A stretch of 64,000 nucleotides of DNA. Origin: a virus. The stretch spans positions 128,001 to 192,000 of IMG/VR virus record IMGVR_UViG_3300045988_177154; one strand, written 5' to 3'. The translations under genes were made by a program, and so were the position numbers. Below are positions 14,656-62,899 of this stretch, in pieces. The notes under the pieces were generated by a model. That model saw nothing but the letters and a program-made list of their open reading frames with translations, searched no databases and was not told where the DNA came from. Positions within the stretch are counted from its first letter, which is position 1; each line of letters starts with the position of its first letter.

Positions 14656-14718
14656 CATTAGCAAATTTGCCAAAAAACTATATAAAGGAATAAAATTAGA
14701 AAGACAAAAGGCAACAAA

Positions 14719-15345: not shown

Positions 15346-15371
15346 AGATAGCACTTTATGTGCTATTTTTA
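15344..15371 (+). terminator. Rho-independent terminator (duplicated with family C)
   Basis: ATAGCAC / GTGCTAT stem followed by a T-run. Near-identical to the terminator at 16715. Confidence 0.7.
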
Positions 15372-15425
15372 GTTACTTTTTCAGAAAAAATATTATATAA
15401 TACAATAAAGAAAAGGAGTAAAAAT

Positions 15426-24012: not shown

Positions 24013-24018
24013 AACTTA

Positions 24019-24047
24019 TTGACTTTATTTCAGCTTTAATATATAAT
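24019..24047 (+). promoter_or_regulatory. Sigma-70-type promoter
   Basis: TTGACT, 17-nt spacer, TATAAT. Confidence 0.65.
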
Positions 24048-24090
24048 ATAAACTATAGAAGTTAACAAGAAAGTAGGATTAAGGTGTTAA

Positions 24091-24891
24091 ATGAATAAAA
24101 GTGAATTGATTCATGAAATATATGAATTTGATAAAGAATTAACAGATTATGGACTGAAGAAAGAAATTAAATTACATAACAATTATTATTTGTGCTTTGG
24201 AACGTTACACCGTAAAATTGGTAATAATACAATCTTTGTTTCAGATTTGACCACATATAATAAAGAAAAAGAATTGTTAGCTTTTTATGAAACTTTTTTC
24301 CATGATTTAGATACATTAGATGAATACCGTGATGGAAGTTCTTACTTTGAGAAAGTGCTCAATTATATCAAAAGGAAAACATCTTATGATAAATTTGAAT
24401 TAGTTCATTCTGGCTTTGATAGTAGAAATGATTACAATAGCATTGAGTATCACTTCCAAGATAGCTACAATAAAGAATTTTTACCAGAAAGCAAAACTCA
24501 AAAAGAGGCATTAGAAAATAGACACAAATTATTCAAATTATACAATATTCTCTATTGGTCAGTTCTTGCAATTTTTGTTGCTTCGTGCGTTGTAGTAATC
24601 ACTTTTCTTTTTGGAAATATAAATGTTTTCTACAATCCATTCTTTACATTACTATTGATTTTGGGGATTTCATTGAAAATTTCTAGCAATCATGTCTATG
24701 AAAAGGTTGAAAAATATAGAACTATAGCTGACGATATAACTTATAAAATTGGAGATTTTGCAAAATTAAATCAAAGAGATTATTATAAAGACATTTATCA
24801 ATTCTATAAAGATGATTTATTCTTCAAAGAACTTCAAAAACAATATAATATAACTACAACACCAACAGGTAATCAAATCATAGGAGATTAA
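24091..24891 (+). CDS. Array A paralogue 4
   Basis: ELIHEIYEFDKEL, LAFYETFF, SYFEKVL, two TM helices, FFKELQKQYNI. Confidence 0.7.
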   Translation: MNKSELIHEIYEFDKELTDYGLKKEIKLHNNYYLCFGTLHRKIGNNTIFVSDLTTYNKEKELLAFYETFFHDLDTLDEYRDGSSYFEKVLNYIKRKTSYDKFELVHSGFDSRNDYNSIEYHFQDSYNKEFLPESKTQKEALENRHKLFKLYNILYWSVLAIFVASCVVVITFLFGNINVFYNPFFTLLLILGISLKISSNHVYEKVEKYRTIADDITYKIGDFAKLNQRDYYKDIYQFYKDDLFFKELQKQYNITTTPTGNQIIGD

Positions 24892-24893
24892 AA

Positions 24894-25946
24894 ATGAACA
24901 GAACTTTAAAAAACACATACAAAAATAAAAAAGTATTTATTACTGGTATTACTGGGTTTAAAGGAAGTTGGCTTGCACTACTATTACATAGATTAGGAGC
25001 TGAAGTTAAGGGCCTTGGATTAGAACAATCAGAGAAAAATACTATTTTCTATAAAGGCGAAATTGAAAAAATTGCTAAGGTTTATATTCAAGACTTACGA
25101 GAAGAATTTTCAGATGAGTTAATTTCTGACATTCAAGAAGCAGATTATATTTTCCATTTAGCTGCACAACCAATCGTATCAGAAGGCTATCGTGACCCTT
25201 ATGGAACATTTAATACAAATGTTATGGGTACTGTTAAAATGCTAGAACTTGTTAAAAATTCTACTCATGAAGTGTCTTTTCTTAGCGTAGCAAGTGACCG
25301 AGTTTATGCTTCAGTTCCACACCCTCATGTTGAAACAGATTCAATGGCTGGATTTGAACCTTATTCATTATCTAAAGTATTTGATAATATGCTTGTAGAT
25401 ATGTATAGCCAAATGGACGGTGTGTCTGATAAAGTTAAATTTATTAACGCTCGTGCTTCAAATGTGCTTGGTGGCGGAGATAAAGGAATTAACCGTATTG
25501 TAACTTCAATTATGGATGCTGTTGAAAAAGGCGAAACACTCAAACTTAGAAACCCAGCATTTGTTCGTCCTTATCTTTATGTGTTAGATTGTCTTTCACA
25601 ATACTTGATTATTGCTTCTTATGGAACATATAATGCTTACAATATTGGTGCAGGTGAACATACAAGTGTTTCTGTACAAGAGCTTGTGGAGTCATTTATC
25701 AAACAAAGCTATCACAATTTGAAATGGAATAATACTGGAGAGCAATTTGGATTTGAAGGTAATACATTACTTGTAAATACTGACAGATTCCACAATGAGT
25801 TCCCTAAAGTAAATTCTGTATGTGATACTATTGATGATGTTGTTAATCGTATCTTGCTAATCAATAATGAATCAGACAAAGAACTTGCTAAACAAAAAGC
25901 AAATACTCTTATTGATGAAGCAATCTCTGTATATAATGAGTTTTAA
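24894..25946 (+). CDS. NAD-dependent sugar-nucleotide 4,6-dehydratase, CDP-glucose 4,6-dehydratase-like (SDR family)
   Basis: KKVFITGITGFKGSWLALLL Rossmann motif typical of RfbG-type enzymes. YSLSK catalytic Y-x3-K. Confidence 0.65.
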   Translation: MNRTLKNTYKNKKVFITGITGFKGSWLALLLHRLGAEVKGLGLEQSEKNTIFYKGEIEKIAKVYIQDLREEFSDELISDIQEADYIFHLAAQPIVSEGYRDPYGTFNTNVMGTVKMLELVKNSTHEVSFLSVASDRVYASVPHPHVETDSMAGFEPYSLSKVFDNMLVDMYSQMDGVSDKVKFINARASNVLGGGDKGINRIVTSIMDAVEKGETLKLRNPAFVRPYLYVLDCLSQYLIIASYGTYNAYNIGAGEHTSVSVQELVESFIKQSYHNLKWNNTGEQFGFEGNTLLVNTDRFHNEFPKVNSVCDTIDDVVNRILLINNESDKELAKQKANTLIDEAISVYNEF

Positions 25947-25958
25947 GGTATATTAACT

Positions 25959-26321
25959 ATGGATAAAATTTTAATTGAAATTTATAATTGTTATGGTAGT
26001 GATTGTAAAATTACTAAAAAAGTAAAAAGTTTGGTTATTGATTCTATTGAAGAACTTAAAAGTGGATTGGAATCTATTGGATATGATTGGATTTTAGAAG
26101 AAGTTTATAATGACTATGATTGGCTTGATGTTGACGAAAAAAGTGATTATGAGGACTTCATTAAAGGCAATACTTCATTTCTTTTAATAGAATGTGATGG
26201 TGATTGGGACGACCCGTTAGGTTGTAAATTAGTCCGTTACTCTTATGATGAAAAGATGAAAGAGCTTGATGAAGCTTATAAAACTCAAAAAGATGAAATA
26301 AATTTATTGTTTAGGGGTTGA
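25959..26321 (+). CDS. Array D paralogue 1 (small acidic protein)
   Basis: MDKILIEIYNCYG..., VIDSIEEL, D/E-rich, KDEINLLFRG C-terminus. Confidence 0.6.
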   Translation: MDKILIEIYNCYGSDCKITKKVKSLVIDSIEELKSGLESIGYDWILEEVYNDYDWLDVDEKSDYEDFIKGNTSFLLIECDGDWDDPLGCKLVRYSYDEKMKELDEAYKTQKDEINLLFRG

Positions 26322-26377
26322 CAGTTCATTAAATATTTGATATAATAAATTCATCAAATGAAAAGGTGGATTTAAAA

Positions 26378-26704
26378 ATGAAAAAATATTTAATTGAAAT
26401 TGCAGACGTAGTTTGTTATGATGAAGAAACAGAAATTGATAGTTTTGCTGTAAACTCACTTGAAGAAGTTGAAGCAGAATTATTAAAACGTGATTTGGAA
26501 TATATTTACCGTTACGGTAAAAAATCAGATTTACAAAAATTCATTAACGGGGAAACTACTGTTGCAACATTCCCTAAAAAACGTAATAGTGATGTATCTG
26601 AATTTTATTCAATTACTTGCTATTCCTACCAAGAGAAATTAGAAGAACTTGAACGAATATTCCAATTCGGAAAAGACAAATTAAACAAATTATTTGAAAT
26701 TTAA
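26378..26704 (+). CDS. Array D paralogue 2 (small acidic protein)
   Basis: ATG at 26378 with an AAGGTGG RBS. MKKYLIEIADVV, AVNSLEEVE, FINGETTVATFP, KDKLNKLFEI. Confidence 0.6.
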   Translation: MKKYLIEIADVVCYDEETEIDSFAVNSLEEVEAELLKRDLEYIYRYGKKSDLQKFINGETTVATFPKKRNSDVSEFYSITCYSYQEKLEELERIFQFGKDKLNKLFEI

Positions 26705-26727
26705 ATTATAAGAAAGGCTGTTTAAAT

Positions 26728-27051
26728 ATGGAAAAATATCTGATTGAAATTTTTGGAATCTATGGTAAAGGTGACGCTGATAAAGAAGTAGAAAGCTTTG
26801 TTATAAATTCCATTGATGAACTTGAAGAAACTATGGAAGGTTATGAATGGCTTTGTAGTGATGGCGGTAAATCTGATTACCAAAGATTCGTTAAAGGAGA
26901 AATCACAACTGCCACATTCCCTCACTATGGTGATTGGGACGAACCTGACGACTATGAAATTGTTCGAACTTCATACAAAGAAAAACTAGAACAAATTGAA
27001 AAAGAGTACAAAGATAAAAAAGAAGAATTGAATAAACGCTTTGGAAACTAA
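26728..27051 (+). CDS. Array D paralogue 3 (small acidic protein)
   Basis: MEKYLIEIFGIYG, VINSIDELE, FVKGEITTATFP, KEELNKRFGN. Confidence 0.6.
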   Translation: MEKYLIEIFGIYGKGDADKEVESFVINSIDELEETMEGYEWLCSDGGKSDYQRFVKGEITTATFPHYGDWDEPDDYEIVRTSYKEKLEQIEKEYKDKKEELNKRFGN

Positions 27052-31430: not shown

Positions 31431-31548
31431 CGCTAAATCAGTTTAAGGGTTGTTATATCGTCATATAAGCAACGCTAAAACAGTTAAAATTAACTTTCGA
31501 TACATTTATCGACTTTGAAGTAAAACAGCTCAAAACAGCTTAAACTTA
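31431..31548 (-). repeat. IGR-120 intergenic repeat, copy R5 (reverse)
   Basis: GGGTTGTTATATCGTCATATAAGCAACGCTAAAACAG is shared with R3. Palindrome TCGATACATTTATCGA, then AAAACAGCTCAAAACAGCTTAAAC. Confidence 0.85.
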
Positions 31549-31566
31549 AATAGAAAAGAGAATAAA

Positions 31567-35554: not shown

Positions 35555-35583
35555 GAAATGCTTTAATTAGCATTTCTTATTTT
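35553..35583 (+). terminator. Rho-independent terminator of folD
   Basis: AAGAAATGC / GCATTTCTT stem followed by a T-run. Confidence 0.75.
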
Positions 35584-35692
35584 AAGCGATTTTAAGCAGT
35601 TTTTCTTTAAAGTCGATACATTTATCGAAATCACGATTTTAGGATTTTACTGTATTACTAATGACGATATAACAACCCTCAAAATCAGTTTT
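35580..35692 (+). repeat. IGR-120 intergenic repeat, copy R6 (forward)
   Basis: TTTTAAGCGATTTTAAGCAG, GTCGATACATTTATCGA, TACTAATGACGATATAACAACCCTCAAAATCAGTTT. Confidence 0.85.
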
Positions 35693-35717
35693 ATAAAAAA
35701 TATTTTTAACATTTTTA

Positions 35718-35746
35718 TTGACATTAGTCTAGTTATATAATATAAT
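35718..35746 (+). promoter_or_regulatory. Sigma-70-type promoter of the telA-like operon
   Basis: TTGACA, 17-nt spacer, TATAAT, followed by ATAATAGAC. Confidence 0.7.
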
Positions 35747-35779
35747 AGACACAAATATAAAAAAGAAAGTAGGACTACT

Positions 35780-36943
35780 ATGAATACTAAAGAGAAAGAA
35801 ACATTAGCATCGAATACAGAACTTGCTAAAGAAGTATTAGCAACTCAAATGCTAAATACAAACGTAGAAGAGCTTGATTATTCATTAGCGGCACTTAAAG
35901 AACAAGACCGTGTTAAAGCTGTTCAAATTATGAAAGACCTTGATGAAAATAATTACTCATCATTGGATAATTTTGGGCAAGATGTTTATGATAAAGTAAA
36001 CGTTAATGCTAACAATGTTCTTTCAAATGTTAGAGGTAAAGATATTTCCAACTTAGGTTTAGACCTAGACACATTGCTTGAGAAAGTTAACAGTATCTCA
36101 CCTAAAGATATTAACAAAGCTGACCCTAGCAAAGCATTGTTCAAAGATATTTTTGGTTTTGCTCGCCGACACTTGTATCGCCTGAAAAATCATTATAGCT
36201 CATTGGATAGTCAAGTAGATACAATTGCAGAAAGCTTAGAATTATCTGTTGCAGAATTGCAAAATGACAATCGTACTTATGAAGCTCTTAAAGAACAAGC
36301 AAAACAAACATTTGAAGAATTGAATGCTTATATTGCAGCTGGAGAAGCTAAAGTCCTTGAATTAGGTCATACAATTGATGAAACCAATAAATCTATTGAA
36401 AATGATAACACTTCTAATAAGATGAGTTTGACTACACAAACGACTTCTCTTGTAAATTATCAAACACGACTACGCAAAAAGACTCAAGATATGCGTAACT
36501 TACAATTCTATCTTGCGTTTATTCAATACCCATCAATCAGCCAATTGCAATCTGATAATGAATTGGTAATCAATAATATTCGTGATACAATTCAAAACGG
36601 ATTACCTATCTACAAAACTAACTTGACAACAATTCTTGGAGCACTACGTACTCGTAAAGCTATTGAACAAACAAAAGCTGTTCGTGAAGTTATCAATAAA
36701 CAAATTTCTCTTGCTGTAGATATGGTTCAAAAGAACGCCGAAGATATTTCAAAATCTGCTATGGAAACAACTATTGATACACAAGTAATTATTGACGCTG
36801 CTCGTAAAATGCAAGAAACTCATGAAAAACTATCTGCTGTTCGTAATGAAGCAGTCAAGGCATTTGATGAACAATCTAAGGCTTTGGAAGAAGCAACAAA
36901 TAAAATTAACAATCATTTGAAAATCGTTGGAGGAGCTAAATAA
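35780..36943 (+). CDS. TelA-like toxic-anion-resistance family protein
   Basis: 387-aa all-helical protein. Its length and layout (LDNFGQD early, long helical repeats) match my memory of TelA/YceH. No strict motif was checked. Confidence 0.55.
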   Translation: MNTKEKETLASNTELAKEVLATQMLNTNVEELDYSLAALKEQDRVKAVQIMKDLDENNYSSLDNFGQDVYDKVNVNANNVLSNVRGKDISNLGLDLDTLLEKVNSISPKDINKADPSKALFKDIFGFARRHLYRLKNHYSSLDSQVDTIAESLELSVAELQNDNRTYEALKEQAKQTFEELNAYIAAGEAKVLELGHTIDETNKSIENDNTSNKMSLTTQTTSLVNYQTRLRKKTQDMRNLQFYLAFIQYPSISQLQSDNELVINNIRDTIQNGLPIYKTNLTTILGALRTRKAIEQTKAVREVINKQISLAVDMVQKNAEDISKSAMETTIDTQVIIDAARKMQETHEKLSAVRNEAVKAFDEQSKALEEATNKINNHLKIVGGAK

Positions 36944-38697: not shown

Positions 38698-38931
38698 ATG
38701 GCTATCACTGTATATGGAAAACAAAATTGTAAACAATGTGAATTTACTAAGAAATTTCTTGATTCAAAACACGCAAGCTTCGTTTATGAAGATTTAACTA
38801 ATGACATTGACAAACAAATTGCTTTGAAAGAAAAGTACAATGTTGAGAAAATGTCTTTACCATTTGTTGTTACTGACACTGCTACTTGGTCAGGTTTCCA
38901 ACCAGACAAATTAGCAAAAGCAATTAAATAA
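38698..38931 (+). CDS. nrdH: NrdH-like glutaredoxin/thioredoxin-fold protein
   Basis: 77 aa. ITVYGKQNCKQCEFTKKFL carries a CxxC site near the N-terminus. SLPFVV and WSGF as in NrdH. Confidence 0.65.
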   Translation: MAITVYGKQNCKQCEFTKKFLDSKHASFVYEDLTNDIDKQIALKEKYNVEKMSLPFVVTDTATWSGFQPDKLAKAIK

Positions 38932-41146: not shown

Positions 41147-43762
41147 ATGAAAAAACAAACTATTATTGCCGGAGCTGCTATTCTGGCCTCAACTACTGGA
41201 ACAACTGCATTCGCAGAGGAAGTTAACCCAACTACTCCTCCTACTGAAATTGTAGCCACAACTACAACTGATACAGTAACAACAACTAATAATGTAGCTA
41301 AACCTGTTGAAACAACAGAAGCTACTACTACAACAGAAAATGCTACTCCTATCGAGAAAGCAGAAAAACAAGTAGGAGAAACTGGCAAAGCAGTTACTGA
41401 CGCTGAAAATTCTGCTAAAGAAACTTTCGAAAAAGAAACTCAAGATAAATCTGCTTATGACAAAGCAACAAATGAAGCAAAAAAAGCTCAAGGTGATGTT
41501 GATAAAACAAAAGAAGATTTAACTAATTCTAAAAATAAATTAGCAGAAGATGAATCAAAAGCTCCTCAATTAGAGAAAAAACTTGCTAATGCTAATAAAT
41601 CTGTAACAGATACAGAAAAAGAAATTTCTGATACAAAAAATGATTTGGCAGCTGCTAAAGAAAATCAATCTAATGAAGAAGCTAAAATCCAACCACAAGT
41701 TAATGCTTTGAAGAAAGCTACTACTGACAAAAAGAATGCTCAAGATAAAGTAGATACTATCAAACAAGATTTGAAAACTAATCAAGCAAATGAAGCTACT
41801 TTAACTGGCGAAATCAATGATTTAACTGCTGCTAAAGAAGTTGCTAACAAAGAAGTAACTTCTACAGGCAATGCTTTGGAAAATGCTAAAAAAGCTGACC
41901 AAACTCGTGCTAATAATATTGCTTCACAAAAAACAATTGTAGCACAAGATACAACAGACAAAAATAATTCTATCGCAACAGAAAAAGCAAAAACTGCTGA
42001 AAAAGAAAAATTAGCTACTGATTTGGATTCTGCTAAGAAAGCATTAGCAGACAATTTGGAAATTCCATTAACAGATGCTTATATTTCTGCTCTTAAAGCT
42101 TATAAACAAAACAAAACAACTGCTAACAGTGACGCTGTAAATAAAATTGCTCAAGAAATTCTAAAATCAAAACAAGTTAAAGCTGCAATGGAATTGCTTA
42201 AAGAAAGTGATACACGTGCTGTTGACCCATCTAATCTTACAACTGAACAATTAAAAGAATTGAATATCCGTATGGCTCAATTTATTGAAGATGTACGTAC
42301 TAAATTCGGTACATTCTCTCCAACTATGGTTCGTGTAAGTGAAGAATCAGTAAACCTATCTAAACTTATCGGTGAAACATATAAAAATGCTATTCGTAAA
42401 GCTGCTGGTAATACAAATCCTACTGTATGGAACGCAGCTGAATTAGGCCACTTGAAGAGTAGCGAAACTGTTGGTGCTAACTTAACAAAAGCTGGTTATA
42501 ACACTACAGCTGCTCCAATTCGTATGGAAACACTTGCTTATTCACCTGAAACAGATATGACAACAATGGGTGAACTAAAAGCTGAAGTTTACAACAGCAT
42601 GATTCGTTGGTTGTATGATGATGAATTGAGTGATTGGGGCCATGCTCTTATCCAATCTGGTTTAGTTTGGAACTACAAGAAAACTGAATTACAAACTTTC
42701 GTAGTTCAAGACGGAAGCTACGTGTTGATTGGTGCTGATGAAACAAGCTTGAAAGAGCAAGATAGCAAATTGAAAACTAAAGAGTATGACATTCCAACAA
42801 CAGATTTCAATGCAGCTAACGCTCGTGTAACTACTCTTGAAAAACAAATCGAAACAAACAAAGCTGAATTGGCTCAAGCTACTAAGAATGTAAAAGCTAC
42901 AACTCAAAAACTTGAAGATTCAACAAATGAATTGAAACGTTTAGAAGCAGTTGAGATTCTTACACCAAAAGCTCAAGAAGCTTATGACAATGCAGTTGCT
43001 AAACATACTGATTTATCTAACCAATTAACAGACAAGAAAAATACTCTTGCTACTGTTCAAGCTAAGATTAAAGAATTAAACATTGCTCTTCCACAAGCTG
43101 AAACTGCTTTAGAAAATGCTACAAAAGTTTACGATAATGCTAAATCTGAATATGATAAAGTAAGTGCTGATGTAGAAAAAGCAAAAGCAGAAGTGAAGCG
43201 TATTGAAAATCAATTAGAAACACTTAATGCTAAATTAAAAGACAACAAAGCAAATGTTGCTTCTACTCAAGAAGAAATTGCTAACAACAACAAAGAAATT
43301 GAAACACTAACAAATTCAATTAAAGAACTTGAAAAACAACTTAAAGAGCAAGAAAAAACACTTGAAGAAAAAGTTAAAGTTCAAAAAGAAAAAGAAGCAA
43401 TTTACTTGAAAGCTAAAGAAGCTGCTGATAAAGAACGTGCTAAAATTGCTGAACTTAAAGCAAAACACGAAGAAGCGGTTTCTAAATTAGAAGCATTGAA
43501 AGAAGAACAAGCTCGTAAAGAACAAGAAAAGGCTCGTGAAGAACAACGACAAAGAGAGCTTGAAGATTACAACCGTGCTATTGATGAAGTATTGTATGGA
43601 ACAAATGCTACAACAAATACAACAACTCCTAACAAATCTAAAAACACATTGCCGGTAACTAACACTTCTAATGAATCAATCTATATTGTTTTTGGGGCTG
43701 CTATTCTTGCCTTCCTTGCTGGACTTGGTTTATACTTCAAAAAGAAAAACAAAAAAGACTAA
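41147..43762 (+). CDS. Cell-wall-anchored coiled-coil surface protein, PrgA/Sec10 surface-exclusion-like
   Basis: Signal peptide MKKQTIIAGAAILASTTGTTAFA. Long K/E/A/T coiled coils flank a central globular domain (..SDWGHALIQ..). C-terminus has LPVTN, a hydrophobic helix and a KKKNKKD tail (sortase-type sorting signal with N in place of G). Confidence 0.55.
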   Translation: MKKQTIIAGAAILASTTGTTAFAEEVNPTTPPTEIVATTTTDTVTTTNNVAKPVETTEATTTTENATPIEKAEKQVGETGKAVTDAENSAKETFEKETQDKSAYDKATNEAKKAQGDVDKTKEDLTNSKNKLAEDESKAPQLEKKLANANKSVTDTEKEISDTKNDLAAAKENQSNEEAKIQPQVNALKKATTDKKNAQDKVDTIKQDLKTNQANEATLTGEINDLTAAKEVANKEVTSTGNALENAKKADQTRANNIASQKTIVAQDTTDKNNSIATEKAKTAEKEKLATDLDSAKKALADNLEIPLTDAYISALKAYKQNKTTANSDAVNKIAQEILKSKQVKAAMELLKESDTRAVDPSNLTTEQLKELNIRMAQFIEDVRTKFGTFSPTMVRVSEESVNLSKLIGETYKNAIRKAAGNTNPTVWNAAELGHLKSSETVGANLTKAGYNTTAAPIRMETLAYSPETDMTTMGELKAEVYNSMIRWLYDDELSDWGHALIQSGLVWNYKKTELQTFVVQDGSYVLIGADETSLKEQDSKLKTKEYDIPTTDFNAANARVTTLEKQIETNKAELAQATKNVKATTQKLEDSTNELKRLEAVEILTPKAQEAYDNAVAKHTDLSNQLTDKKNTLATVQAKIKELNIALPQAETALENATKVYDNAKSEYDKVSADVEKAKAEVKRIENQLETLNAKLKDNKANVASTQEEIANNNKEIETLTNSIKELEKQLKEQEKTLEEKVKVQKEKEAIYLKAKEAADKERAKIAELKAKHEEAVSKLEALKEEQARKEQEKAREEQRQRELEDYNRAIDEVLYGTNATTNTTTPNKSKNTLPVTNTSNESIYIVFGAAILAFLAGLGLYFKKKNKKD

Positions 43763-43763: not shown

Positions 43764-43797
43764 AAAAAGAGCTATCTAAGATAGCTCTTTTCTTTTT
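43764..43797 (+). terminator. Rho-independent terminator
   Basis: AGAGCTATC / GATAGCTCT stem followed by a T-run. Confidence 0.8.
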
Positions 43798-43798
43798 G

Positions 43799-43922
43799 TT
43801 TTAAGCGATTTTAAGCGACTCTAAGCTGTTTTTATTATAAGTCGATACATTTATCGAAAATCAGTTTTTACAGTCATAGCGTTTCACTAGTGACGATATA
43901 ACGATATTCAAAATCAGTTTGA
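43799..43922 (+). repeat. IGR-120 intergenic repeat, copy R7 (forward, most complete)
   Basis: TTTTAAGCGATTTTAAGCGACTCTAAGCTGTTTTT, GTCGATACATTTATCGA, AAAATCAGTTTTT, CACTAGTGACGATATAACG, CAAAATCAGTTT. Confidence 0.9.
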
Positions 43923-43962
43923 GAACATTATTCCAACCGAAAGTTTTTAATTCTATTCTTAT

Positions 43963-43991
43963 TTGACAAATCTCTAAAAATATTATACAAT
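43963..43991 (+). promoter_or_regulatory. Sigma-70-type promoter
   Basis: TTGACA, 17-nt spacer, TACAAT. Confidence 0.65.
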
Positions 43992-44021
43992 AGTAATATA
44001 AAGCGAAAGGTGATTAAATAT

Positions 44022-49317: not shown

Positions 49318-50424
49318 ATGAAATATAGTTACTCATACTATAATGAAGAAGATTTTGATACTTATGTTAAACAATTTGATAATTATTCTTTGCTTCAAAG
49401 TAGAGAATGGGGTGCAGTAAAAAGCCCTATATGGAAAAATAAAAAAGTTTTATTCTATGAAAATGAAAAAGTAGTAGGAACTGCCCTAATTCTTATTAGA
49501 GAAATTGCTTTTCATAAAAACTTTATCTACATTCCTTATGGGCCGCTTTTTGATTATTCTAATAAAGAATTATTTAACTTTGTAACAGAAAGCTTAAAGA
49601 AAATTGCTAAAGAAAATAAAGCAATTTTTGTAAAAGTAGTTCCACCTGTATTTGATGATAATTCTATTAGTGTCGATTTCAAAATTAACGGTTGGGTAGA
49701 AAATGTTACTGAAAAATCTTTTGATTCTATTCAACCAAAATTAAATGCTGTAATTAAAGATTTCAAAATGAGTAAAAGAATGAAACAAGAAAGACGAACA
49801 ACAGAAAATAAAAATGTACATTCTGTTTATTCTATTGACACTGAAGCTTCTTTTGAAACATTATTACATGATTTTTATTCTTTGACTAAATTAACTGAAA
49901 AAAGACAAGGTATTAAATTAAGAAATAAAGATTATTTCAGACAATTACTATATAGATACCCAAATTCATTCATTACTGTTTCTTATATTGATAAGGAAAA
50001 ACAAATTGCTAAATTAAATGAAGAATATAATAAATCAAATAGTGAAAAAGCTAAACAAGAATTAGAAAAACTTAAACATAATCAAGCTAAAAACATTCCG
50101 ATTTCAGGCACTCTTACTGTAATTTATGGAGATACGGCAGAATTACTCTATGCGGGATTTGACGATAATTTCAAATCATATAATTCTGCTTCTTATTCTT
50201 GGAGTAATTCTATTATGAAAGCTTTTGAGCTTAATCCTAATCTTAAATATGTAAATTTAGGTGGAGTAGAAAATGATGGGCACTTGCTAAACTTTAAAAA
50301 GAAATTCCACCCAGAGATTAGAACTTCTTGTAATGAATTTGATTTACCAATTAGTCCTTTATACTATTTATTCAAATTTGCTCTAAAACATAAGAAACTT
50401 ATTCTCAAATTTATCAAAAAATAA
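49318..50424 (+). CDS. FemAB/MurM-family aminoacyl-tRNA-dependent peptidoglycan peptidyltransferase
   Basis: LLQSREWGAVK, YIPYGPLFDYS, AIFVKVVPP, a coiled-coil insert (EKQIAKLNEEYNKSNSEKAKQELEKLK), then GTLTVIYGDTAELLYAGFDD and YVNLGGV. This is the FemABX layout. Confidence 0.7.
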   Translation: MKYSYSYYNEEDFDTYVKQFDNYSLLQSREWGAVKSPIWKNKKVLFYENEKVVGTALILIREIAFHKNFIYIPYGPLFDYSNKELFNFVTESLKKIAKENKAIFVKVVPPVFDDNSISVDFKINGWVENVTEKSFDSIQPKLNAVIKDFKMSKRMKQERRTTENKNVHSVYSIDTEASFETLLHDFYSLTKLTEKRQGIKLRNKDYFRQLLYRYPNSFITVSYIDKEKQIAKLNEEYNKSNSEKAKQELEKLKHNQAKNIPISGTLTVIYGDTAELLYAGFDDNFKSYNSASYSWSNSIMKAFELNPNLKYVNLGGVENDGHLLNFKKKFHPEIRTSCNEFDLPISPLYYLFKFALKHKKLILKFIKK

Positions 50425-50696: not shown

Positions 50697-52611
<1,915 letters not shown>

Positions 52612-53825: not shown

Positions 53826-54635
53826 ATGGCTTATCATGTATCATCTAAAGGAATTTTGACTGTATGTAAAGCCCAACCAGGTAAATGCCCATTGGGTGGT
53901 AAACATTTTGAAAATGAATCCGCGGGAATGGAATACTTAGACAATCTAAATAACAAAGAAAGCTTAATCGAAAAATTCAAAAATGCTCCAACACCAGGTG
54001 CTAGAATAAGATTAAGAAAAGAAATTAGATTATTAAATCAAGCATTAGGCTTAGAAGATGATGCCGATATTCCAGCTCCTCAACCGTCAAAAGAACAACT
54101 AGAAAGAGAAAGACGAATTAAGGAAAGAGAAATAGAAGAAGCTAAAAAAGAAAAAGAAATGGCCGAGAACTTAAAAGAATTTGAAAATAAAGAGTTCTTA
54201 TCTATTCCAAAAAATATAGAAAATTTAAGAAGTAATTATTTATTTAAAGAAAATTATTTCTCTCGTCAAGCTATGTATAAATCAACTTATAGGGGCGAAC
54301 AGAGTAGAGAAAATAGAGACCATAATACAGGTACTGCTATGTATGGCCAAGGAAGATACTCTACTACAAATAGAAAATACGCTTCAAAATTTGGAGAAGT
54401 CAGAACCGTTGATTATGAAGAAATGCCATCTAAACCTCTATCATTCAAAAATGCGACTGCTTTTGAAATGTTTGAACAAGAACTTGCAAGAGAACATAAC
54501 ATAGATAAAAGGCATATGTACCGTAATCAAGATTTATCAGAAATTATTAAAAAGATGGGCTATAATGGAGTAACAATTGGGCCTAAATCGGATATGGTTA
54601 TTGTTTCTTATGAGACTAAAATGAAAAATACTTAA
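53826..54635 (+). CDS. CKN-module protein 4: N-terminal Cys/His module, E/K-rich linker, C-terminal domain with a possible R-S-E ADP-ribosyltransferase-like pattern
   Basis: MAYHVSSKGILTVCKAQPGKCPLGGKHFENE. The C-terminal domain has TYRG, RYSTTN and FEQE in the order expected for R / STS / ExE, but the R-to-S spacing is short. Confidence 0.6.
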   Translation: MAYHVSSKGILTVCKAQPGKCPLGGKHFENESAGMEYLDNLNNKESLIEKFKNAPTPGARIRLRKEIRLLNQALGLEDDADIPAPQPSKEQLERERRIKEREIEEAKKEKEMAENLKEFENKEFLSIPKNIENLRSNYLFKENYFSRQAMYKSTYRGEQSRENRDHNTGTAMYGQGRYSTTNRKYASKFGEVRTVDYEEMPSKPLSFKNATAFEMFEQELAREHNIDKRHMYRNQDLSEIIKKMGYNGVTIGPKSDMVIVSYETKMKNT

Positions 54636-54689
54636 ATATAAATTAAAAGTTATTTAGCTTATCCTAAATAACTTTTTTATATTTAGAAA

Positions 54690-54790
54690 GGAGTCTAAGC
54701 TGTTTTATATATAGGCAATAAAAACTATCATATATTACCGTAAACTGTCTTAGCTGCTGTTTTAACAACAGCTAATATGATTTTAAAGTA
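54690..54790 (+). repeat. IGR-120 intergenic repeat, copy R9 (forward, divergent)
   Basis: GTCTAAGCTGTTTTAT, AAACTGTCTTAGCTGCTGTTTTAACAACAGC. Confidence 0.6.
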
Positions 54791-54890
54791 ACACCTTATC
54801 TTTATTAAATATTGATAGTTTAACTATAATATAAAAACCTAAAATAAAAGAATAATATAAATAAAAGAAGAAATTTAAAAGGAGTACAAA

Positions 54891-55835
54891 TTGGATAATA
54901 AATATGATGTAATTATTATTGGTGGTGGCCCTGCTGGATTAAGTGCGGCTTTATACACTTCTAGAGCTAATTTAAAAGTTCTTGTTATTGAAAAGAATAT
55001 AATTGCTTCTCAATTGTACGAAACAGAACATATTGATAATTACTTAGGTAGTGTTTCCACAAAAGCGGCCGAATTAGCAGACAAAATGAGAGAAGATGGT
55101 GCTAAATTCGGAGCAGAATTAAAAGAATTTGAAAATGTAACTAAAATTAGTAAAGAAAATAATTTATATAAAGTAGAAACAACTGAAACTTATGACGAAA
55201 GTGTTCAAAACACTTATTATGCAAAAGCTGTTCTATTAGCAACAGGTACAGAACATAATCATTTAATTCTTGAGCAACATGATGAGTTATTAGGCATGGG
55301 AATTAGTTATTGTGCTACTTGTGATGGTGCTTTCTATGCTGGTAAGAATACAGCAGTAATTGGTGGCGGAGATAGTGCAATGGAATCAGCATTATTACTA
55401 TCTGAATTTGCTAATAAAGTTTATCTTTTAATTAGAGATAAAGTTAGAGCAAAATCACATTTACTTAAAATGGTTGAAGAAACAGAAAATATTGAAATTA
55501 TATATAATGAAGTAACAGAGCTTATTAGTGAAAACAATACTTTAAAAGCTGTTAAACTAAAAGATAATACGATTCTTGAAGTATCAGGTTTATTCCCTGC
55601 AATTGGAGCAAGCCCTAATACTAATTATATTGATTCTCTATATTTAAACAATGTTGAGAAATTCAATGATTATCTATTACCTGTTACCACCCATAACTTA
55701 TTAACGTATCATAATGGTAATGGATTGTTTATTGCTGGAGACTTGAAAAATCCAAAATATAGACAAGTTGCTATTGCAGTAGGAGAGGGGGCTTATGCAG
55801 CTTTAGAAATCTATGATTATCTAAAAGGAGTATAA
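54891..55835 (+). CDS. trxB: Thioredoxin reductase
   Basis: TTG start 7 nt after AGGAG. FAD motif DVIIIGGGPAGLSAALY, redox-active CATCDG, NADPH motif AVIGGGDSAMESA. Confidence 0.85.
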   Translation: MDNKYDVIIIGGGPAGLSAALYTSRANLKVLVIEKNIIASQLYETEHIDNYLGSVSTKAAELADKMREDGAKFGAELKEFENVTKISKENNLYKVETTETYDESVQNTYYAKAVLLATGTEHNHLILEQHDELLGMGISYCATCDGAFYAGKNTAVIGGGDSAMESALLLSEFANKVYLLIRDKVRAKSHLLKMVEETENIEIIYNEVTELISENNTLKAVKLKDNTILEVSGLFPAIGASPNTNYIDSLYLNNVEKFNDYLLPVTTHNLLTYHNGNGLFIAGDLKNPKYRQVAIAVGEGAYAALEIYDYLKGV

Positions 55836-55840
55836 GCTTC

Positions 55841-56323
55841 ATGAATGGAATTGTTAAAAATGAATATACTGAAATTCAAAAGTATTTTGATGATTACTAT
55901 AAAGAACAATTAGAAAAATATGAAGAGTTGAAGTATTATGATAATTACTTATTTACGAACATTGAGGACGAACCAATTTATTGGGGATTTGGTATTATTG
56001 TTCTAATATTAGTTAGTATAATAGCTGACAAGTCTCAATATGAATTTTGGAACTATGTGTTTTTTGCAGTTTTAGGAATTTTTATTTTATTCACAATTTT
56101 AATATTCTTCAAAGCTGTATTTTGGAATTATGAGTTTAAAAAATCTAAAAAGACTTTCTTTAAACATTATTATAAATCTAAAAATATTAGAACAGTAACA
56201 AGATATTTAGGTGTTAATAAATCAGATTTGCTTTTTAATGAAGATTATATTATAATCGGTCTTAATATTAAAGATGAAAAACAACTAAATAAACTAGAAA
56301 GAGAACTTAAAAATGGAAAATAA
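55841..56323 (+). CDS. Array B paralogue 1 (two-TM membrane protein), hypothetical
   Basis: Starts 5 nt after the trxB stop. NEYTEIQKYFDDYYKEQLEKYEE, two TM helices, C-terminal KQLNKLERELKNGK. Confidence 0.65.
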   Translation: MNGIVKNEYTEIQKYFDDYYKEQLEKYEELKYYDNYLFTNIEDEPIYWGFGIIVLILVSIIADKSQYEFWNYVFFAVLGIFILFTILIFFKAVFWNYEFKKSKKTFFKHYYKSKNIRTVTRYLGVNKSDLLFNEDYIIIGLNIKDEKQLNKLERELKNGK

Positions 56324-56873
56324 TTTAGTAGAACTTAAATACGATAAAGTAAATGAATATTTTGAGAATTTCAAGAAGAAATATACAAGTAATTATGAAG
56401 AAAACAAAACAAAAGGCTATCGTACTGTAATTCCTTATCGTATGTTAATCAGTCCCACTATTATGAGTGTAATTAGTATCGTTGTTGCTTATGTAACAAA
56501 TACTATATTATCAGATTTACCAAAAATAAACTCGAATGATACAGCTGGGGCAATATATAGTATATATGAAGTTTTAGTATCATGGATATTTCCAGTAATG
56601 ATTCTTACTTCATTATCTCACCTTTTAGTAACTTTTGTTAGAATGGGGTTCAATTCTTATGACGTACCTATTTCTTACAAAAAAATAGACTACTATAATA
56701 AAATCAAAACAAGAATGTTAAATGAGATACAAACAGATTTAAACACTCCAATTACAGAGAATATGCTTATTTTAGATGCAAATGGGTTGATTGTTGCTCC
56801 TAATCTAAGTAATAATGAAAACAAAAAGATTTTTGGAGAAATAGAAAGGAATCTTAAAACAAGTGAAAAATGA
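56313..56873 (+). CDS. Array B paralogue 2
   Basis: Overlaps the upstream gene by 11 nt. NNLVELKYDKVNEYFENFKKKY, TM helices, ITENMLILDANGLIVAPNLSNNENKKIFGEIERNLK. Confidence 0.7.
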   Translation: MENNLVELKYDKVNEYFENFKKKYTSNYEENKTKGYRTVIPYRMLISPTIMSVISIVVAYVTNTILSDLPKINSNDTAGAIYSIYEVLVSWIFPVMILTSLSHLLVTFVRMGFNSYDVPISYKKIDYYNKIKTRMLNEIQTDLNTPITENMLILDANGLIVAPNLSNNENKKIFGEIERNLKTSEK

Positions 56874-57432
56874 TTTAGTAGAACTAAAACTTGATAGAAT
56901 TGACCGCTATTTTGAAAAATTTAAAACAAAATATAAACTTCATTATGAACTTAATAAAACAAATAAGACACATTTGGTATTACCTTATCAGAAGTTAATA
57001 ATGCCTGTAATATTTATTTTTATTGGTATTATTACTTTTCTTATGACTCGTGTTATATATTGGCAAATAAGCAATTTTTCATCTAGCATGACATTATCAA
57101 GTTTTAATGAAGCTGCAATGTTGCTCATAAATATTTTATCTATTGTTTTATTGGGTGTACTCTCACTTTTGATTGTGACTCATCTTATTGACTTTTTTAA
57201 AAATATTCATAAAGAAACTATTGAATATACGAAAAAAGAATACTACAACAAAATTAAATCTATTATGATTGAGCAAATCCAATCAGAATTAAGTAATCTA
57301 ATTACTGAAGATATGCTTACATTTGATTTAGATGGGTTAATTATAGCTCCAAACTTAAATACTAATGAAAATATAAAGTTATTTAAAGAAATAGAAAGGG
57401 ATTTAAAGTTAAATGAGCAACAATCTCATTGA
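56863..57432 (+). CDS. Array B paralogue 3
   Basis: GTG start overlapping the upstream gene by 11 nt. NDLVELKLDRIDRYFEKFKTKY, ITEDMLTFDLDGLIIAPNLNTNENIKLFKEIERDLK. Confidence 0.7.
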   Translation: MKNDLVELKLDRIDRYFEKFKTKYKLHYELNKTNKTHLVLPYQKLIMPVIFIFIGIITFLMTRVIYWQISNFSSSMTLSSFNEAAMLLINILSIVLLGVLSLLIVTHLIDFFKNIHKETIEYTKKEYYNKIKSIMIEQIQSELSNLITEDMLTFDLDGLIIAPNLNTNENIKLFKEIERDLKLNEQQSH

Positions 57433-57997
57433 GCTCAAATATGATAGAGTCAAAGGATTCTTTGATGAAATGATAGCTAAATATGAAGTTGAGTATCAAA
57501 ATAATAAAACAACAACTGAAAAAATATATGTTAGTAATGTTAGAAGAGTATTAGAGTCTATCCTAATTATTTTTATTATGATTGCTTTTTGTGGGGGGCT
57601 AATTTGGTTCATAAAGAGTGGCTCCAATTACACTAAGACTGAATTTACAGATAAATTTATTAAGGTAATAGATGAAGATGTAATTCCATTATTAGCACCA
57701 TTTGTTGGTATTATTTTTGTTGGTTTGATAAATATTAAACTAATGAAAGTCATTCTTGGAATAAGGCCTAACAATGAAACAAGAACAATAACAAAAACTC
57801 TATCAAAAAAGAAATATTTCACCAAAATCAAAGCAGATATGCTCTATTACGTTAGATACAATTTAAGTTATTCCATTACAGAAAATATGCTTATCTTTGA
57901 TAAATATGGTATGATAATTGGGCCCGACTTAAGTACTAATGAAAACAAGAAAATATTTGGCGAAGTAGAGCATAAATTGGAGCAAAAGAATGAATAA
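57413..57997 (+). CDS. Array B paralogue 4
   Basis: Overlaps the upstream gene by 20 nt. NNLIELKYDRVKGFFDEMIAKY, ITENMLIFDKYGMIIGPDLSTNENKKIFGEVEHKLE. Confidence 0.7.
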   Translation: MSNNLIELKYDRVKGFFDEMIAKYEVEYQNNKTTTEKIYVSNVRRVLESILIIFIMIAFCGGLIWFIKSGSNYTKTEFTDKFIKVIDEDVIPLLAPFVGIIFVGLINIKLMKVILGIRPNNETRTITKTLSKKKYFTKIKADMLYYVRYNLSYSITENMLIFDKYGMIIGPDLSTNENKKIFGEVEHKLEQKNE

Positions 57998-58508
57998 TAT
58001 AGTAGAATTTGGTTACCCTAATTTAGATAACTACTTTAAGGATTTGTTAGAAATCCAAAAGAAAAAATATGAAGTAAAAAAAGAGAAATGGCAAAATCAT
58101 TTTAAGGAATTTTTCTCTAAAGCTATTCCAGTTGTAATAAGCATGATTATTGTTTCAATCTTAAATCATTTAATAACTTTAGATTATCCTAATGCTGTTA
58201 AATTGATTCTTGTTATAGGTGATGTTATATCAGCTATTTATGTTTTTGTGAATGGTTTTGTTTTCCTATTTCATCTTCCATTATTCTTTATTTCTTCATA
58301 TGTTGTATTTAAAGAGATAGCAAATTACAAAAGCTATAACGAACGAGAAACACTTAGAACAATTAAAGATGATTTAGATGTTTATTTAAATAGCTCAAAC
58401 GTTATTATCAATTCTAAGGGCTTCATAACCGATTTAAAACGTGATGATAAAGAGCTCTGTCAAAAAATAGAAGAACATTTAAAAACAAACAAAAAAGAAG
58501 TTATTTAG
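57990..58508 (+). CDS. Array B paralogue 5 (divergent)
   Basis: Overlaps the upstream gene in the junction ATGAATAA. NNIVEFGYPNLDNYFKDLLEIQKKKY, TM helices, KELCQKIEEHLK. Confidence 0.65.
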   Translation: MNNIVEFGYPNLDNYFKDLLEIQKKKYEVKKEKWQNHFKEFFSKAIPVVISMIIVSILNHLITLDYPNAVKLILVIGDVISAIYVFVNGFVFLFHLPLFFISSYVVFKEIANYKSYNERETLRTIKDDLDVYLNSSNVIINSKGFITDLKRDDKELCQKIEEHLKTNKKEVI

Positions 58509-58530
58509 CTTTTGCTAAATGACTTTTTTA

Positions 58531-58645
58531 ATAACGCTTACTGCTGTTTTAAGCTGTTTTTATGAAGAGTCGATATATTTATCAAAAATAGATTTTTACT
58601 GTTTTAGCGTCTTACTAGTGACGATATAACATATACTAAAATGAA
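58531..58645 (+). repeat. IGR-120 intergenic repeat, copy R10 (forward)
   Basis: CTTACTGCTGTTTTAAGCTGTTTTTAT, GTCGATATATTTATCAA, TTACTAGTGACGATATAAC. Ends about 30 nt before the next start codon. Confidence 0.85.
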
Positions 58646-58673
58646 TTAGAGCAAATTAAAAGAGAGGTATAAA

Positions 58674-59024
58674 ATGCCATTGCCAAAAAGAAATCCAAAA
58701 TTACCTGATTTAGAAGAAATGAATCAAGGTGAAATCAATATTAGAGAAACTGAACGCTGGAAAAAATTATATATGAGATTGATTGATTCCAAAAAAGCAA
58801 TGAGAGGCTCTGCTAAAGATAAAGAAGAAACGTATAAACAGATGATTGATAAATTATATGGTGAACCACCTGTAGAGCAAAGTAATATTATGGGTGGAGT
58901 TCATTCATTTATGAATCCTAACTTCAAATATACTAATGATGATGAGGACCCCGAAACTCAACGTTTAATTGCAGAAGCAAGAGCAAAACGAATTGAAAGA
59001 GAAATAGCAGAAGGCTTACGATAA
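58674..59024 (+). CDS. Hypothetical protein
   Basis: 116-aa ORF with an AGAGAGG RBS. Confidence 0.6.
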   Translation: MPLPKRNPKLPDLEEMNQGEINIRETERWKKLYMRLIDSKKAMRGSAKDKEETYKQMIDKLYGEPPVEQSNIMGGVHSFMNPNFKYTNDDEDPETQRLIAEARAKRIEREIAEGLR

Positions 59025-61195: not shown

Positions 61196-62899
61196 ATGAA
61201 TTTACTTATTCAGTCTATTCTTCTAATTCTGCTTTATTTCATCTCAGTCCCATTCAGTTTTTGGTTTAAAGACTGGATTGCTTATCAAATTAGAAAGAAA
61301 AGAAGAAATAATAGGCAGAATAAACAACCTACTGAAGAATTAACTTATAAACAAAAAATTAAACGTGAAAAGAAATTCGCTTTAAAAGAAGCCAGTAATA
61401 AGAATGTAATTAGACTAATCTATGTATTAACTATTCTTATCGGCCCAATTGTTGCTATAAAAACACTCCTTTGGGGAGCTGTTTTATCATTTTTTATCCC
61501 GTATGTATTTATTGGAATTGTTCATAATATGATAAGTGCAGAATTAGCTGCTAGAGATAAACTTATATCTCGTATGCTTGATTTCAAACGTTCTAAAATG
61601 GGCTTAATTGACAACAAAGCAAATATAATGGATTATACTGAAGAATTTATTATTTTAGAAAATGACCCAGAAGATAAGAAACCATCTAAAATTAGATTGT
61701 TTTTACCAGTTAACTTCGACCCGTTACAAGCTAATACTTTTCTATCAGATTTTTCTACACAATTCGGTAGAGGTCGTCCATTTGAAATTGATTACGAAGA
61801 TAAAGAATACCCAGGTTGGGATACGGATAAAGGTGTAGCAACTATCTCATTACAAGCTCCACTTCCTACTATGGCTAAATGGGATAAACATTATTTAGAA
61901 GACCCAATAGTTCAATGGAGTTTTATTCCACTAGGATTATCTTCTAGGGGTGGACTTCCAATTAAAAATCCCGAAACTGGTGAAATTGAACACGTTGTAG
62001 GATTTGACTTAGACGGAACTCAAAAGAAATATTGTGATAAAAATGGTATTCATATTGGTGCCGATATTATCGCTTCACCCATGACTCTTATTGCAGGTGT
62101 TACAGGTGGTGGAAAATCTGTTGCTCAATGGAATATTATGAACTCATGTTTAGCTAGACCAGATAAATGGTTGTTATTTGGTATAGATATGAAGAAAGTG
62201 GAACTTAGCCAACTTAGACAATATGGTGTTGCTGTTGGAACTACTATGGAAGATGCTTGCGACATTTCTTGCTTCGTTCAAAAAGTCATGATGGATAGAT
62301 ATGAACTTATGGAAAGACTCGGTATCAATAACTGGGAAGATATTCCGAAAGAATATGACGGCCCAGCAATTCTATTGCTTGTTGACGAGGCTGGGGAACT
62401 ACTTGCTGAAATCAAAGGTAAAGATGAAATTTCAAAAGCTAATCAAGAATACCAAGATAAAATTAGAGCCGCTTTTGAAAGTATTGCTCGTCTTGGTCGT
62501 GCAGCTCGTGTATTCTTAGTTTGTGCAGCACAAAGACCATCATCAGATGTTATCCCTATGCAAGTTCGACAAAATATGAGTAATAAATTAGCTGCAGGTT
62601 CATTACCAGCAACTATTTCTCAAATGTTGTTTGAAAATAACGAAGGCCAAAAAGTTAAAGGTAATCCTAAAGGTAGAATTGGATTAAAAGTTCACTCAAG
62701 TGATGTTATTCATGCTCAAGGATTTTACTCTCCAACTGATTGGATTGACGGTTATATTAAAGAAAAAGGCTGGCCTAAGAAACTTTATGAAAACTCATCA
62801 TTTGTCAATGAGTTAAATGAAAGTAAAGAAGCTAATGCTTCTAATGCTGAAGAAGCTATGTCAGAAGAAGATTTTGACTTATTAGAGTCAGTTAAATAA
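61196..62899 (+). CDS. FtsK/SpoIIIE-family DNA-translocase ATPase with N-terminal TM helices (conjugative coupling-protein-like)
   Basis: Two or three N-terminal TM helices. Walker A AGVTGGGKS, Walker B ILLLVDEAGEL, VFLVCAAQRPS. Confidence 0.75.
   Translation: MNLLIQSILLILLYFISVPFSFWFKDWIAYQIRKKRRNNRQNKQPTEELTYKQKIKREKKFALKEASNKNVIRLIYVLTILIGPIVAIKTLLWGAVLSFFIPYVFIGIVHNMISAELAARDKLISRMLDFKRSKMGLIDNKANIMDYTEEFIILENDPEDKKPSKIRLFLPVNFDPLQANTFLSDFSTQFGRGRPFEIDYEDKEYPGWDTDKGVATISLQAPLPTMAKWDKHYLEDPIVQWSFIPLGLSSRGGLPIKNPETGEIEHVVGFDLDGTQKKYCDKNGIHIGADIIASPMTLIAGVTGGGKSVAQWNIMNSCLARPDKWLLFGIDMKKVELSQLRQYGVAVGTTMEDACDISCFVQKVMMDRYELMERLGINNWEDIPKEYDGPAILLLVDEAGELLAEIKGKDEISKANQEYQDKIRAAFESIARLGRAARVFLVCAAQRPSSDVIPMQVRQNMSNKLAAGSLPATISQMLFENNEGQKVKGNPKGRIGLKVHSSDVIHAQGFYSPTDWIDGYIKEKGWPKKLYENSSFVNELNESKEANASNAEEAMSEEDFDLLESVK

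Follow-up and report, generated by a model that had tools for sequence, protein, structure and literature searches.

A thioredoxin reductase gene and a hypervariable tandem array of orphan two-helix membrane proteins in one compact locus of oral jumbo phages

The window analyzed here is a 64,000-nucleotide (nt) stretch of the IMG/VR virus record IMGVR_UViG_3300045988_177154 (positions 128,001 to 192,000), and the locus under study is a thioredoxin reductase gene, trxB, followed directly by a tandem array of five genes, a1 to a5, for small predicted membrane proteins. All six genes lie on the + strand. The trxB gene (54891-55835) encodes a low-Mr thioredoxin-disulfide reductase of 314 amino acids (aa); it has a TTG start, located 7 nt 3' of an AAAGGAG, and an intact CATC redox site, as an initial annotation made from the sequence alone had recorded. 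That annotation also placed five paralogous genes at 55841, 56313, 56863, 57413, and 57990 after a gap of 5 nt, with overlaps of 8-20 nt, and these positions hold. The array opens with a1, the first "bookend" member (55841-56323, 160 aa), continues with three variable internal members, a2 (56313-56873, 186 aa), a3 (56863-57432, 189 aa, GTG start), and a4 (57413-57997, 194 aa), and closes with a5, the last bookend (57990-58508, 172 aa). The trxB-a1 gap is 5 nt and the successive overlaps from a1 to a5 are 11, 11, 20, and 8 nt. Each of the five proteins has two hydrophobic segments, consistent with the pair of transmembrane (TM) helices predicted initially (a cruder scan gave approximately three in a5), and each has at most one cysteine: a1, a2, and a3 have none, while a4 and a5 have one each, in line with the earlier remark that the paralogues largely lack this residue.

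The paralogy of a2, a3, and a4 is far above chance, with 32-43% identity and BLASTP E-values from 1e-26 to 1e-43; a3 and a2 share 43% identity (E 1.2e-43), and a4 is 32-34% identical to a2 and a3. The bookends a1 and a5 are distant members, with pairwise E-values of approximately 1e-4 to 1e-5. The family hidden Markov model (HMM) matched all five proteins (a1, 2e-41; a2, 6.2e-77; a3, 6.6e-68; a4, 6.9e-59; a5, 1.3e-56), the scores of a1 and a5 coming from a profile that itself contains them, so that independent support for their membership comes from the pairwise E-values together with their common position and architecture. The N- and C-terminal motifs quoted for the whole array in the initial annotation were found in a2 to a4 and did not extend to a1 and a5. 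At the DNA level the array contains repeats of 103 and 109 nt with a period of 550-574 nt. The ribosome-binding site (RBS) of the next gene (GAAAGG) falls within the conserved C-terminal "ERxLK" codons of the preceding array gene, and part of the C-terminal conservation may therefore be dual-coding.

Two intrinsic-terminator-like hairpins on the + strand flank the block. The hairpin ending the upstream unit (54636-54682) has an AT-rich 12-bp core stem followed by a U-run (-11.9 kcal/mol, z -4.59), and the hairpin ending the trxB-array unit (58494-58529) has a 16-bp stem followed by a U-run (-17.9 kcal/mol, z -6.36); for each, 0 of 200 shuffled sequences folded as well. The two hairpins pair as repeat D14. 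The sequence of the downstream hairpin is kept in relatives, and the upstream hairpin is absent from those relatives that have a spacer of 76-82 nt in place of the upstream repeat copy described below. By RNA folding, the five junctions inside the trxB-a5 block were unstructured (z approximately -0.4 to +0.55), and a generic scan found no + strand terminator within the block. Because of the flanking hairpins and the unstructured internal junctions, trxB through a5 likely form one transcript, as had been proposed. The RBS of a1 (AAAGGAG) is embedded in the last codons of trxB, and this junction is conserved, with a gap of 4-5 nt. A sigma-70 promoter scan gave no usable signal in DNA this rich in AT, with 41 sites against 44 expected.

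The unit had also been described as bounded by two copies, R9 and R10, of an intergenic repeat. This is true of the window genome and fails across the clade of related genomes, where R9 is often absent. The upstream copy, R9 (54667-54870, +), is partial and degenerate, with only the AAGCTGTTTT part well conserved, and is the second-weakest of the eight copies in the window (nhmmer E 5.1e-21). It is present in the window genome and in relatives L001, L004, L011, and L018, and absent from L002, L006, L008, L017, and L009. The downstream copy, R10 (58515-58665, +), is full (nhmmer E 5.7e-30), is kept in all relatives including the distant L009, and lies upstream of a conserved 116-aa gene and a NERD-domain gene; it is likely a regulatory element for that next unit. 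The repeat as a whole measures approximately 120-160 nt and has the conserved core AAGCTGTTTT ... GTCGATACATTTATCGAAAA ... CACTAGTGACGATATAACGA. Besides R9 and R10, copies are located at 3244-3449, 4361-4515, 14546-14716, 31439-31560, 35563-35772, and 43787-44009; two copies score on the opposite strand too. The copies at 35.7 and 43.9 kb are each followed by a canonical TTGACA-17-TATAAT promoter, those at 54.8 and 58.6 kb by none. Insertion and deletion of the repeat differ among relatives, and it is possibly a phage-specific regulatory element.

The protein encoded by trxB aligned end to end with solved thioredoxin reductases (TrxRs), the best being 7aaw (E 1.8e-48). The FAD-binding GxGxxG motif reads GGGPAG (residues 11-16) and aligned to that of solved TrxRs; the redox CxxC is CATC (residues 141-144, nt 55311-55322), within a CATCDGAF that aligned with the CAVCDGAF of 7aaw; and the NADPH-binding motif is GGGDSA (residues 158-163), within an aligned GGGDSAME. 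The HRRxxxR 2'-phosphate motif is reduced to I-RDKVRA (residues 181-187, nt 55431-55451), with one Arg lost relative to 7aaw, and the preference for NADPH or NADH may be altered as a result. The Pfam match was Pyr_redox_2 (E 1.1e-33) and the best NCBIfam family was TIGR01292 (E 1.8e-79), with a score of 266.7 bits that lies under the equivalog cutoff of 343.45. By this score, TrxB is a divergent member of the low-Mr thioredoxin reductases. The ratio of nonsynonymous to synonymous substitution (dN/dS; Nei-Gojobori) was 0.07-0.12 for trxB, indicating strong purifying selection, and a working low-Mr thioredoxin reductase appears to be the best explanation of the gene.

The NrdH-like redoxin that the initial annotation offered as a partner of TrxB is present at 38698-38931 (+). 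It is a glutaredoxin-like protein of 77 aa with a CKQC (residue 11, nt 38728-38739) and a WSGFQP (residue 64), thus having the size, the CxxC, and the C-terminal WSGFRP-type motif of NrdH redoxins. Its best family was TIGR02194 (E 2.3e-15), at 56.6 bits, under the cutoff of 85.75. Bacterial NrdH redoxins are TrxR clients that feed class Ib ribonucleotide reductase (RNR) (PMC3190916, PMC8564101), and by analogy TrxB probably recycles the NrdH-like redoxin of the phage.

The genome that carries the locus is that of a jumbo phage of approximately 325 kb from human mouth metagenomes. The window has a G+C content of 29%, its + strand holds approximately 78 of 86 crude gene calls, and it contains four tRNA genes. 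The a2 protein is 100% identical to UniProt A0A8S5RWJ3 from the uncultured phage "Siphoviridae sp. ctHip2". Proteins of the window recur on metagenome contigs of approximately 315-350 kb, including one IMG/VR viral genome, and several source records of the clade are labelled human oral metagenome. The clade is abundant, single TrxB variants being found on 177-295 contigs. Among 50,697 phage records, megablast found no DNA-level relative of the region and tblastn with a2 found no match. Host inference by searching the phage's FemAB gene against 185,579 species genomes returned no relative.

A profile search of 5.8 billion proteins with the array family yielded 272 matches, none of them named and none with a Pfam domain, and HMMER, run exhaustively against 1.84 billion cluster representatives, retrieved only 56 clusters, many of which were fragments. 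In all 12 genomic contexts the members lay in one collinear block with the order 346-aa gene, 269-aa gene, trxB, array, 116-aa gene, and NERD-domain gene. A profile scan of all open reading frames (ORFs) in the window and the clade loci found members only in the array, and a scan with the distant member P0143 recovered the same clade only. Across the databases searched, the array family thus appears confined to one clade of oral jumbo phages of approximately 315-350 kb.

Searches of the array proteins against Pfam, PHROGs, NCBIfam, and PADLOC returned noise only; for SLATT and known defence membrane proteins there was no Pfam match at E ≤ 0.1 beyond noise and no PADLOC match at E < 0.05. A sequence-profile search of the PDB returned designed helical proteins only. 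An AlphaFold2 model of a2, built on an 18-sequence alignment (predicted local distance difference test, pLDDT, 84.6), placed an N-terminal helix and a strand before two long TM helices (42-68 and 77-113), followed by a strand, two helices (124-143), a beta-hairpin, and a final helix. With the full-length model, Foldseek found no close match in the PDB (best E 1.3); from BFVD it retrieved just the proteins of the phage itself. The C-terminal cytoplasmic domain was re-modelled alone in case the TM hairpin had hidden a match; this model (helix, hairpin, helix; pLDDT 86.4) had a best PDB E-value of 2.4. The charge distribution and positive-inside bias give moderate support for a topology with both termini inside (N-in/C-in) and a net-negative external loop. 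No cysteine column is conserved, 104 of 205 family members having no cysteine at all, and the family has no invariant polar or catalytic residues. On these searches and models the array proteins form a new orphan family without a solved or annotated relative. Hypervariable accessory gene arrays are already known from phages; what is new here is the protein family.

That the family is diversifying, as had been supposed, was evident from its identities, types, and turnover. Within the clade, TrxB proteins are 93-95% and NERD proteins 96-98% identical, and array proteins are 46-89% identical. The dN/dS was 0.03-0.05 for the NERD gene, 0.03-0.17 for the neighbours overall, and 0.12-0.44 for the array genes (0.12-0.25 for a5). 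By domain, the array values were 0.17 and 0.19 for the cytoplasmic N- and C-terminal parts, 0.54 for TM1, 0.62 for the loop, and 0.64 for TM2. The array proteins are thus real and constrained, with the membrane part changing fastest. At the orthologous position of a2, identity was 46-50% and synonymous divergence (dS) exceeded 1, indicating allele replacement. Array copy number was 3, 4, 5, or 6, and the members formed 14 types at 60% identity. In complete main-clade arrays an a1-type member was always first and an a5-type member always last, with one to four variable internal members between them.

Array content differed even among genomes whose NERD protein is that of the window; a2, for instance, is absent in L019-L021 despite an identical NERD protein. 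Broken and mosaic copies were found as well: a4 is broken in L007 (121+52 aa), a1 is split in one relative (69+95 aa), P0034 is an a4/a5 chimera, and P0023 has a partial N-terminal duplication. In the most distant lineage, L009, TrxB is 70%, the NERD protein 91%, and the array members 24-29% identical; trxB and the array are separated there by a gene for a soluble 59-aa protein. In this abundant oral phage clade, no part of the region changes faster than the array, the rest being conserved, and the locus would serve as a convenient strain-level marker. Just 3' of the array, the 116-aa gene (58674-59024) occurs as two alleles, approximately 70% and 97-99% identical to the window copy, beside a NERD gene that stays 96-98% identical.

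Synteny of trxB with the array, the check suggested for a functional link between them, is kept across the clade, including the lineage with the 70%-identical TrxB. Synteny cannot separate function from shared ancestry here, because the family is restricted to genomes that are collinear throughout this neighbourhood. The nearest outgroup TrxBs are those of L014 (58% identity), L015 (49%), and L016 (46%). In L014, trxB is followed by genes for two small soluble proteins of 74 and 156 aa, a Ribonuc_red_sm gene, and NDK. In L016 the order is a Ribonuc_red_lgC gene, an ATP-cone gene, trxB, and a partial gene that by eye is the N-terminus of an RNR small subunit. Neither locus has the array, and no ORF adjoining trxB in these two loci matched the family profile. 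The L015 trxB has neither RNR genes nor a two-TM array nearby. The 59-aa ORF after trxB in L009 and the 74-aa ORF in L014 are not detectably related (E 0.9). Among described phages, Enterococcus phage EF1 has nrdD, nrdG, one gene, and then trxB, and Bacillus phage G has trxB alone, without RNR genes; neither has the array. Outgroup trxB is linked with RNR genes in two of the three metagenome outgroups and in EF1, which returns the gene to its expected place. Close linkage in an operon, together with synteny kept inside one collinear clade, is thus no evidence of a functional partnership.

The reading given about even chances is that the locus packs two functionally independent modules, a TrxB-NrdH pair and an accessory, conflict-related membrane array, into one compact transcription unit; it rests on the missing conserved cysteines, the decoupled rates of trxB and the array, and the absence of the family from the outgroup trxB loci scanned. 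TrxB would reduce the NrdH-like redoxin, and possibly host thioredoxins, feeding ribonucleotide reduction during replication of the approximately 325-kb genome. The array proteins would have both termini in the cytoplasm and a short external loop between their two helices, with the cytoplasmic N- and C-terminal parts forming, in the model, a small helix/beta domain without a known relative and with the membrane hairpin and loop evolving fast. Unequal recombination at the conserved coding repeats (5' and 3') may expand or contract the array and generate chimeras, and throughout this turnover an a1-type member stays first and an a5-type member last. Each paralogue might block a different membrane-acting threat, either the membrane-penetration device of a superinfecting phage or a membrane defence effector of the host; on the T4 Imm model, specificity would reside in the rapidly changing hairpin, and having multiple paralogues would extend protection to multiple threats. 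Of the roles considered for the array, an accessory one in superinfection exclusion or another membrane-level conflict is the most likely by analogy. If exclusion or counter-defence is its role, the array would represent a new protein family for conflict at the membrane, carried by uncultured jumbo phages whose hosts are of Gram-positive type.

Several observations weigh against this reading. The exclusion or conflict role would rest on evolutionary pattern and architecture; dN/dS is below 1 in every array region, so positive selection is not demonstrated, and the faster change of the TM helices and loop could reflect weak constraint on a hydrophobic anchor instead of an arms race. Most of the mass of the proteins is cytoplasmic and conserved, and binding to a conserved partner inside the cell would explain this no less well than recognition of an external invader. 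As for the redox module, no RNR gene was found in the window, a search of the clade with an outgroup NrdF gave no match, and the TrxB and NrdH scores both lie under the NCBIfam equivalog or subfamily cutoffs. Furthermore, every complete locus retains at least part of the array, and the junction at which trxB and a1 share the RBS is conserved; the array might to some degree depend on trxB being expressed, and its proteins might even have a physical link with TrxB.

Such a link is the core of the alternative offered initially, in which TrxB is wired to the array functionally, the paralogues being membrane anchors that dock TrxB or NrdH, or redox-regulated immunity proteins, with reducing power delivered to a membrane or envelope target. 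The tight junction with the a1 RBS inside trxB, the co-occurrence of the two in every clade genome examined, the 70%-identical-TrxB lineage among them, the persistence of at least part of the array, and a conserved cytoplasmic domain (dN/dS 0.17-0.19) that could bind a soluble partner such as TrxB are all as this alternative would have it. The proteins themselves argue otherwise, since they have no conserved cysteine and half of the members are cysteine-free; the thiol-disulfide partners of DsbD, CcdA, or DsbB type were rejected as models for them for want of conserved cysteine pairs. The rates of trxB and the array are decoupled, a different gene follows trxB in L009, outgroup trxB genes stand with RNR genes or alone and never with such proteins, and other arrays of the genome adjoin unrelated enzymes. 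Linkage, for its part, is little informative when the block is collinear in the sole clade that has the family. Functional wiring of TrxB to the array is thus very improbable, and of the "redox-dependent immunity or exclusion array" proposed at the outset the redox part is unsupported while exclusion remains the most plausible idea. A specific version, in which the conserved bipartite cytoplasmic domain anchors TrxB, translated along with it, or the NrdH-like redoxin to the cytoplasmic membrane and the paralogues act as interchangeable adaptors steering disulfide-reducing power to various targets in the membrane or envelope, is a long shot; if true, it would amount to a previously undescribed system in which redox power drives exclusion or the remodelling of the envelope.

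Two further alternatives leave TrxB aside. The array proteins might be housekeeping membrane tethers whose cytoplasmic domain recruits replication, assembly, or envelope-synthesis machinery, the TM hairpin being a weakly constrained anchor and copy number drifting neutrally. The well-conserved cytoplasmic domains, the merely lower constraint on TM helices and loop at dN/dS below 1, the unfailing retention of the a1 and a5 bookends, and the many genes nearby that relate to the envelope (FemAB, an RmlA-like transferase, an epimerase, an LPXTG protein) would all suit tethers. It would be unusual, however, for housekeeping genes to vary between near-identical genomes and to be pseudogenised in some, as the internal members do; five paralogues diverged to 24-43% identity argue for different specificities, and invariant polar or catalytic residues are absent. 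Tethers are therefore considered unlikely. Holin- or antiholin-like regulators of lysis timing come to mind because class II holins have two TM helices and N-in/C-in topology, which, with charged termini, is what is predicted for the array proteins; a weak structural match in BFVD (E 4.5) also names a putative holin. At 160-194 aa with a folded cytoplasmic domain, however, the proteins are larger than typical holins (60-150 aa), and they occur in three to six copies where one or two would be expected. Pfam and PHROG scans of the neighbours tested found no endolysin, and no PHROG lysis family matched, leaving a role in lysis the most remote of the explanations weighed. Two independent modules thus remain the preferred account of the locus.

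The closest mechanistic parallel for a conflict-related array would be T4 Imm, which is small, sits in the membrane, and blocks genome entry through binding to the tape measure protein of the incoming phage (bioRxiv 10.64898/2026.03.06.709160). Like T4 Imm and HK97 gp15, the array proteins are small phage-encoded membrane proteins (predicted from TM segments and charge bias) specified by accessory genes, and as in T4 Imm the membrane-embedded part would be the specificity determinant, a resemblance of possible mechanism only. They differ from T4 Imm and HK97 gp15 in their doubled size, in their conserved two-part cytoplasmic domain, and in their occurrence as three to six tandem paralogues. 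No significant homology to known superinfection exclusion proteins was found in PHROG, Pfam, PADLOC, PDB, or BFVD beyond the phage's own proteins.

With the EF1-type arrangement of trxB beside RNR genes, the window trxB shares the enzyme family and its motifs, a large phage of low-GC Gram-positive hosts as its setting, and a small phage-encoded NrdH- or glutaredoxin-like redoxin. It differs in heading a membrane-protein array, in having no adjacent RNR genes in the window and its NrdH gene 16 kb away, and in encoding a TrxB that scores under the TIGR01292 cutoff and has its HRR motif reduced to I-R.

The internal-protein locus of T-even phages is a hyperplastic, polymorphic accessory locus of large phages that encodes soluble proteins packaged in the virion. 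The array resembles it in its tandem, rapidly replaced genes at a fixed position in a conserved backbone and in its conserved terminal coding segments, which favour recombination; it differs in encoding membrane proteins and in having constant first and last members. The orphan immunity arrays of polymorphic toxins in Firmicutes consist of tandem diverged paralogues, often small membrane proteins, whose copy number varies by strain. The phage array shares the tandem diverged paralogues and the variable copy number, but it is a phage locus with no linked toxin gene or secretion system, and Pfam and PADLOC scans found no homology to known immunity families.

Six paralogue families were found within the 64-kb window. 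One is a second two-TM tandem array of four paralogues (291, 291, 279, and 266 aa; 21455-24891, +), flanked by a glycosyltransferase gene (20177-21439) and an epimerase gene (24894-25946). Its genes overlap or abut, and each protein has approximately two TM segments near its C-terminal third. It follows the same plan as the trxB-linked array, with a cytoplasmic N-domain, a TM hairpin, and a cytoplasmic C-domain in four tandem paralogues, and differs in its larger proteins (266-291 aa) and in having sugar-enzyme flanks instead of trxB. Homology between the two arrays was ruled out (hhalign probability 0.6%). The other families include a three-gene tandem array (120, 112, and 107 aa; 25959-27051, +), a pair of approximately 450-aa paralogues (15360-16715 and 17219-18562), and a dispersed four-member family (at 27971, 33658, 45319 on the - strand, and 53826). 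Of the dispersed family, the copy at 53826-54635 immediately precedes trxB.

Elsewhere the window carries a range of envelope and membrane genes: an MscS-like fragment at the window edge (66-581), TelA (35780-36943, E 2.2e-44), an 871-aa coiled-coil protein with an LPXTG anchor (41147-43762), a FemAB-family gene (49318-50424; the Pfam match was seen on the equivalent gene of relatives), an RmlA-like nucleotidyltransferase with an epimerase/dehydratase (50697-52611), and an FtsK/SpoIIIE ATPase with approximately three TM segments (61196-62899). This cargo suggests a Gram-positive-type host and extensive envelope remodelling. The window also encodes a full-length pyruvate formate-lyase (formate C-acetyltransferase; 883-3216, +) that scored 1173.7 bits against TIGR01255, above the cutoff of 994.2, and that is unusual phage cargo for a metabolic gene of such size; no activase for it was identified among the ORFs scanned.

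An IS607-like element, consisting of a serine-recombinase (Resolvase) gene paired with a gene for a protein of 457-498 aa, was found in L002 (1-1750), L004 (22-2005), L009 (15822-17892), and a contig of JGI 3300007339. The partner gene matches Cas12f1-like_TNB in the L009 and L010 copies, the remaining copies having no Pfam match on record. The window's copy of the region is without the element, whose position near the trxB locus differs among clade genomes.

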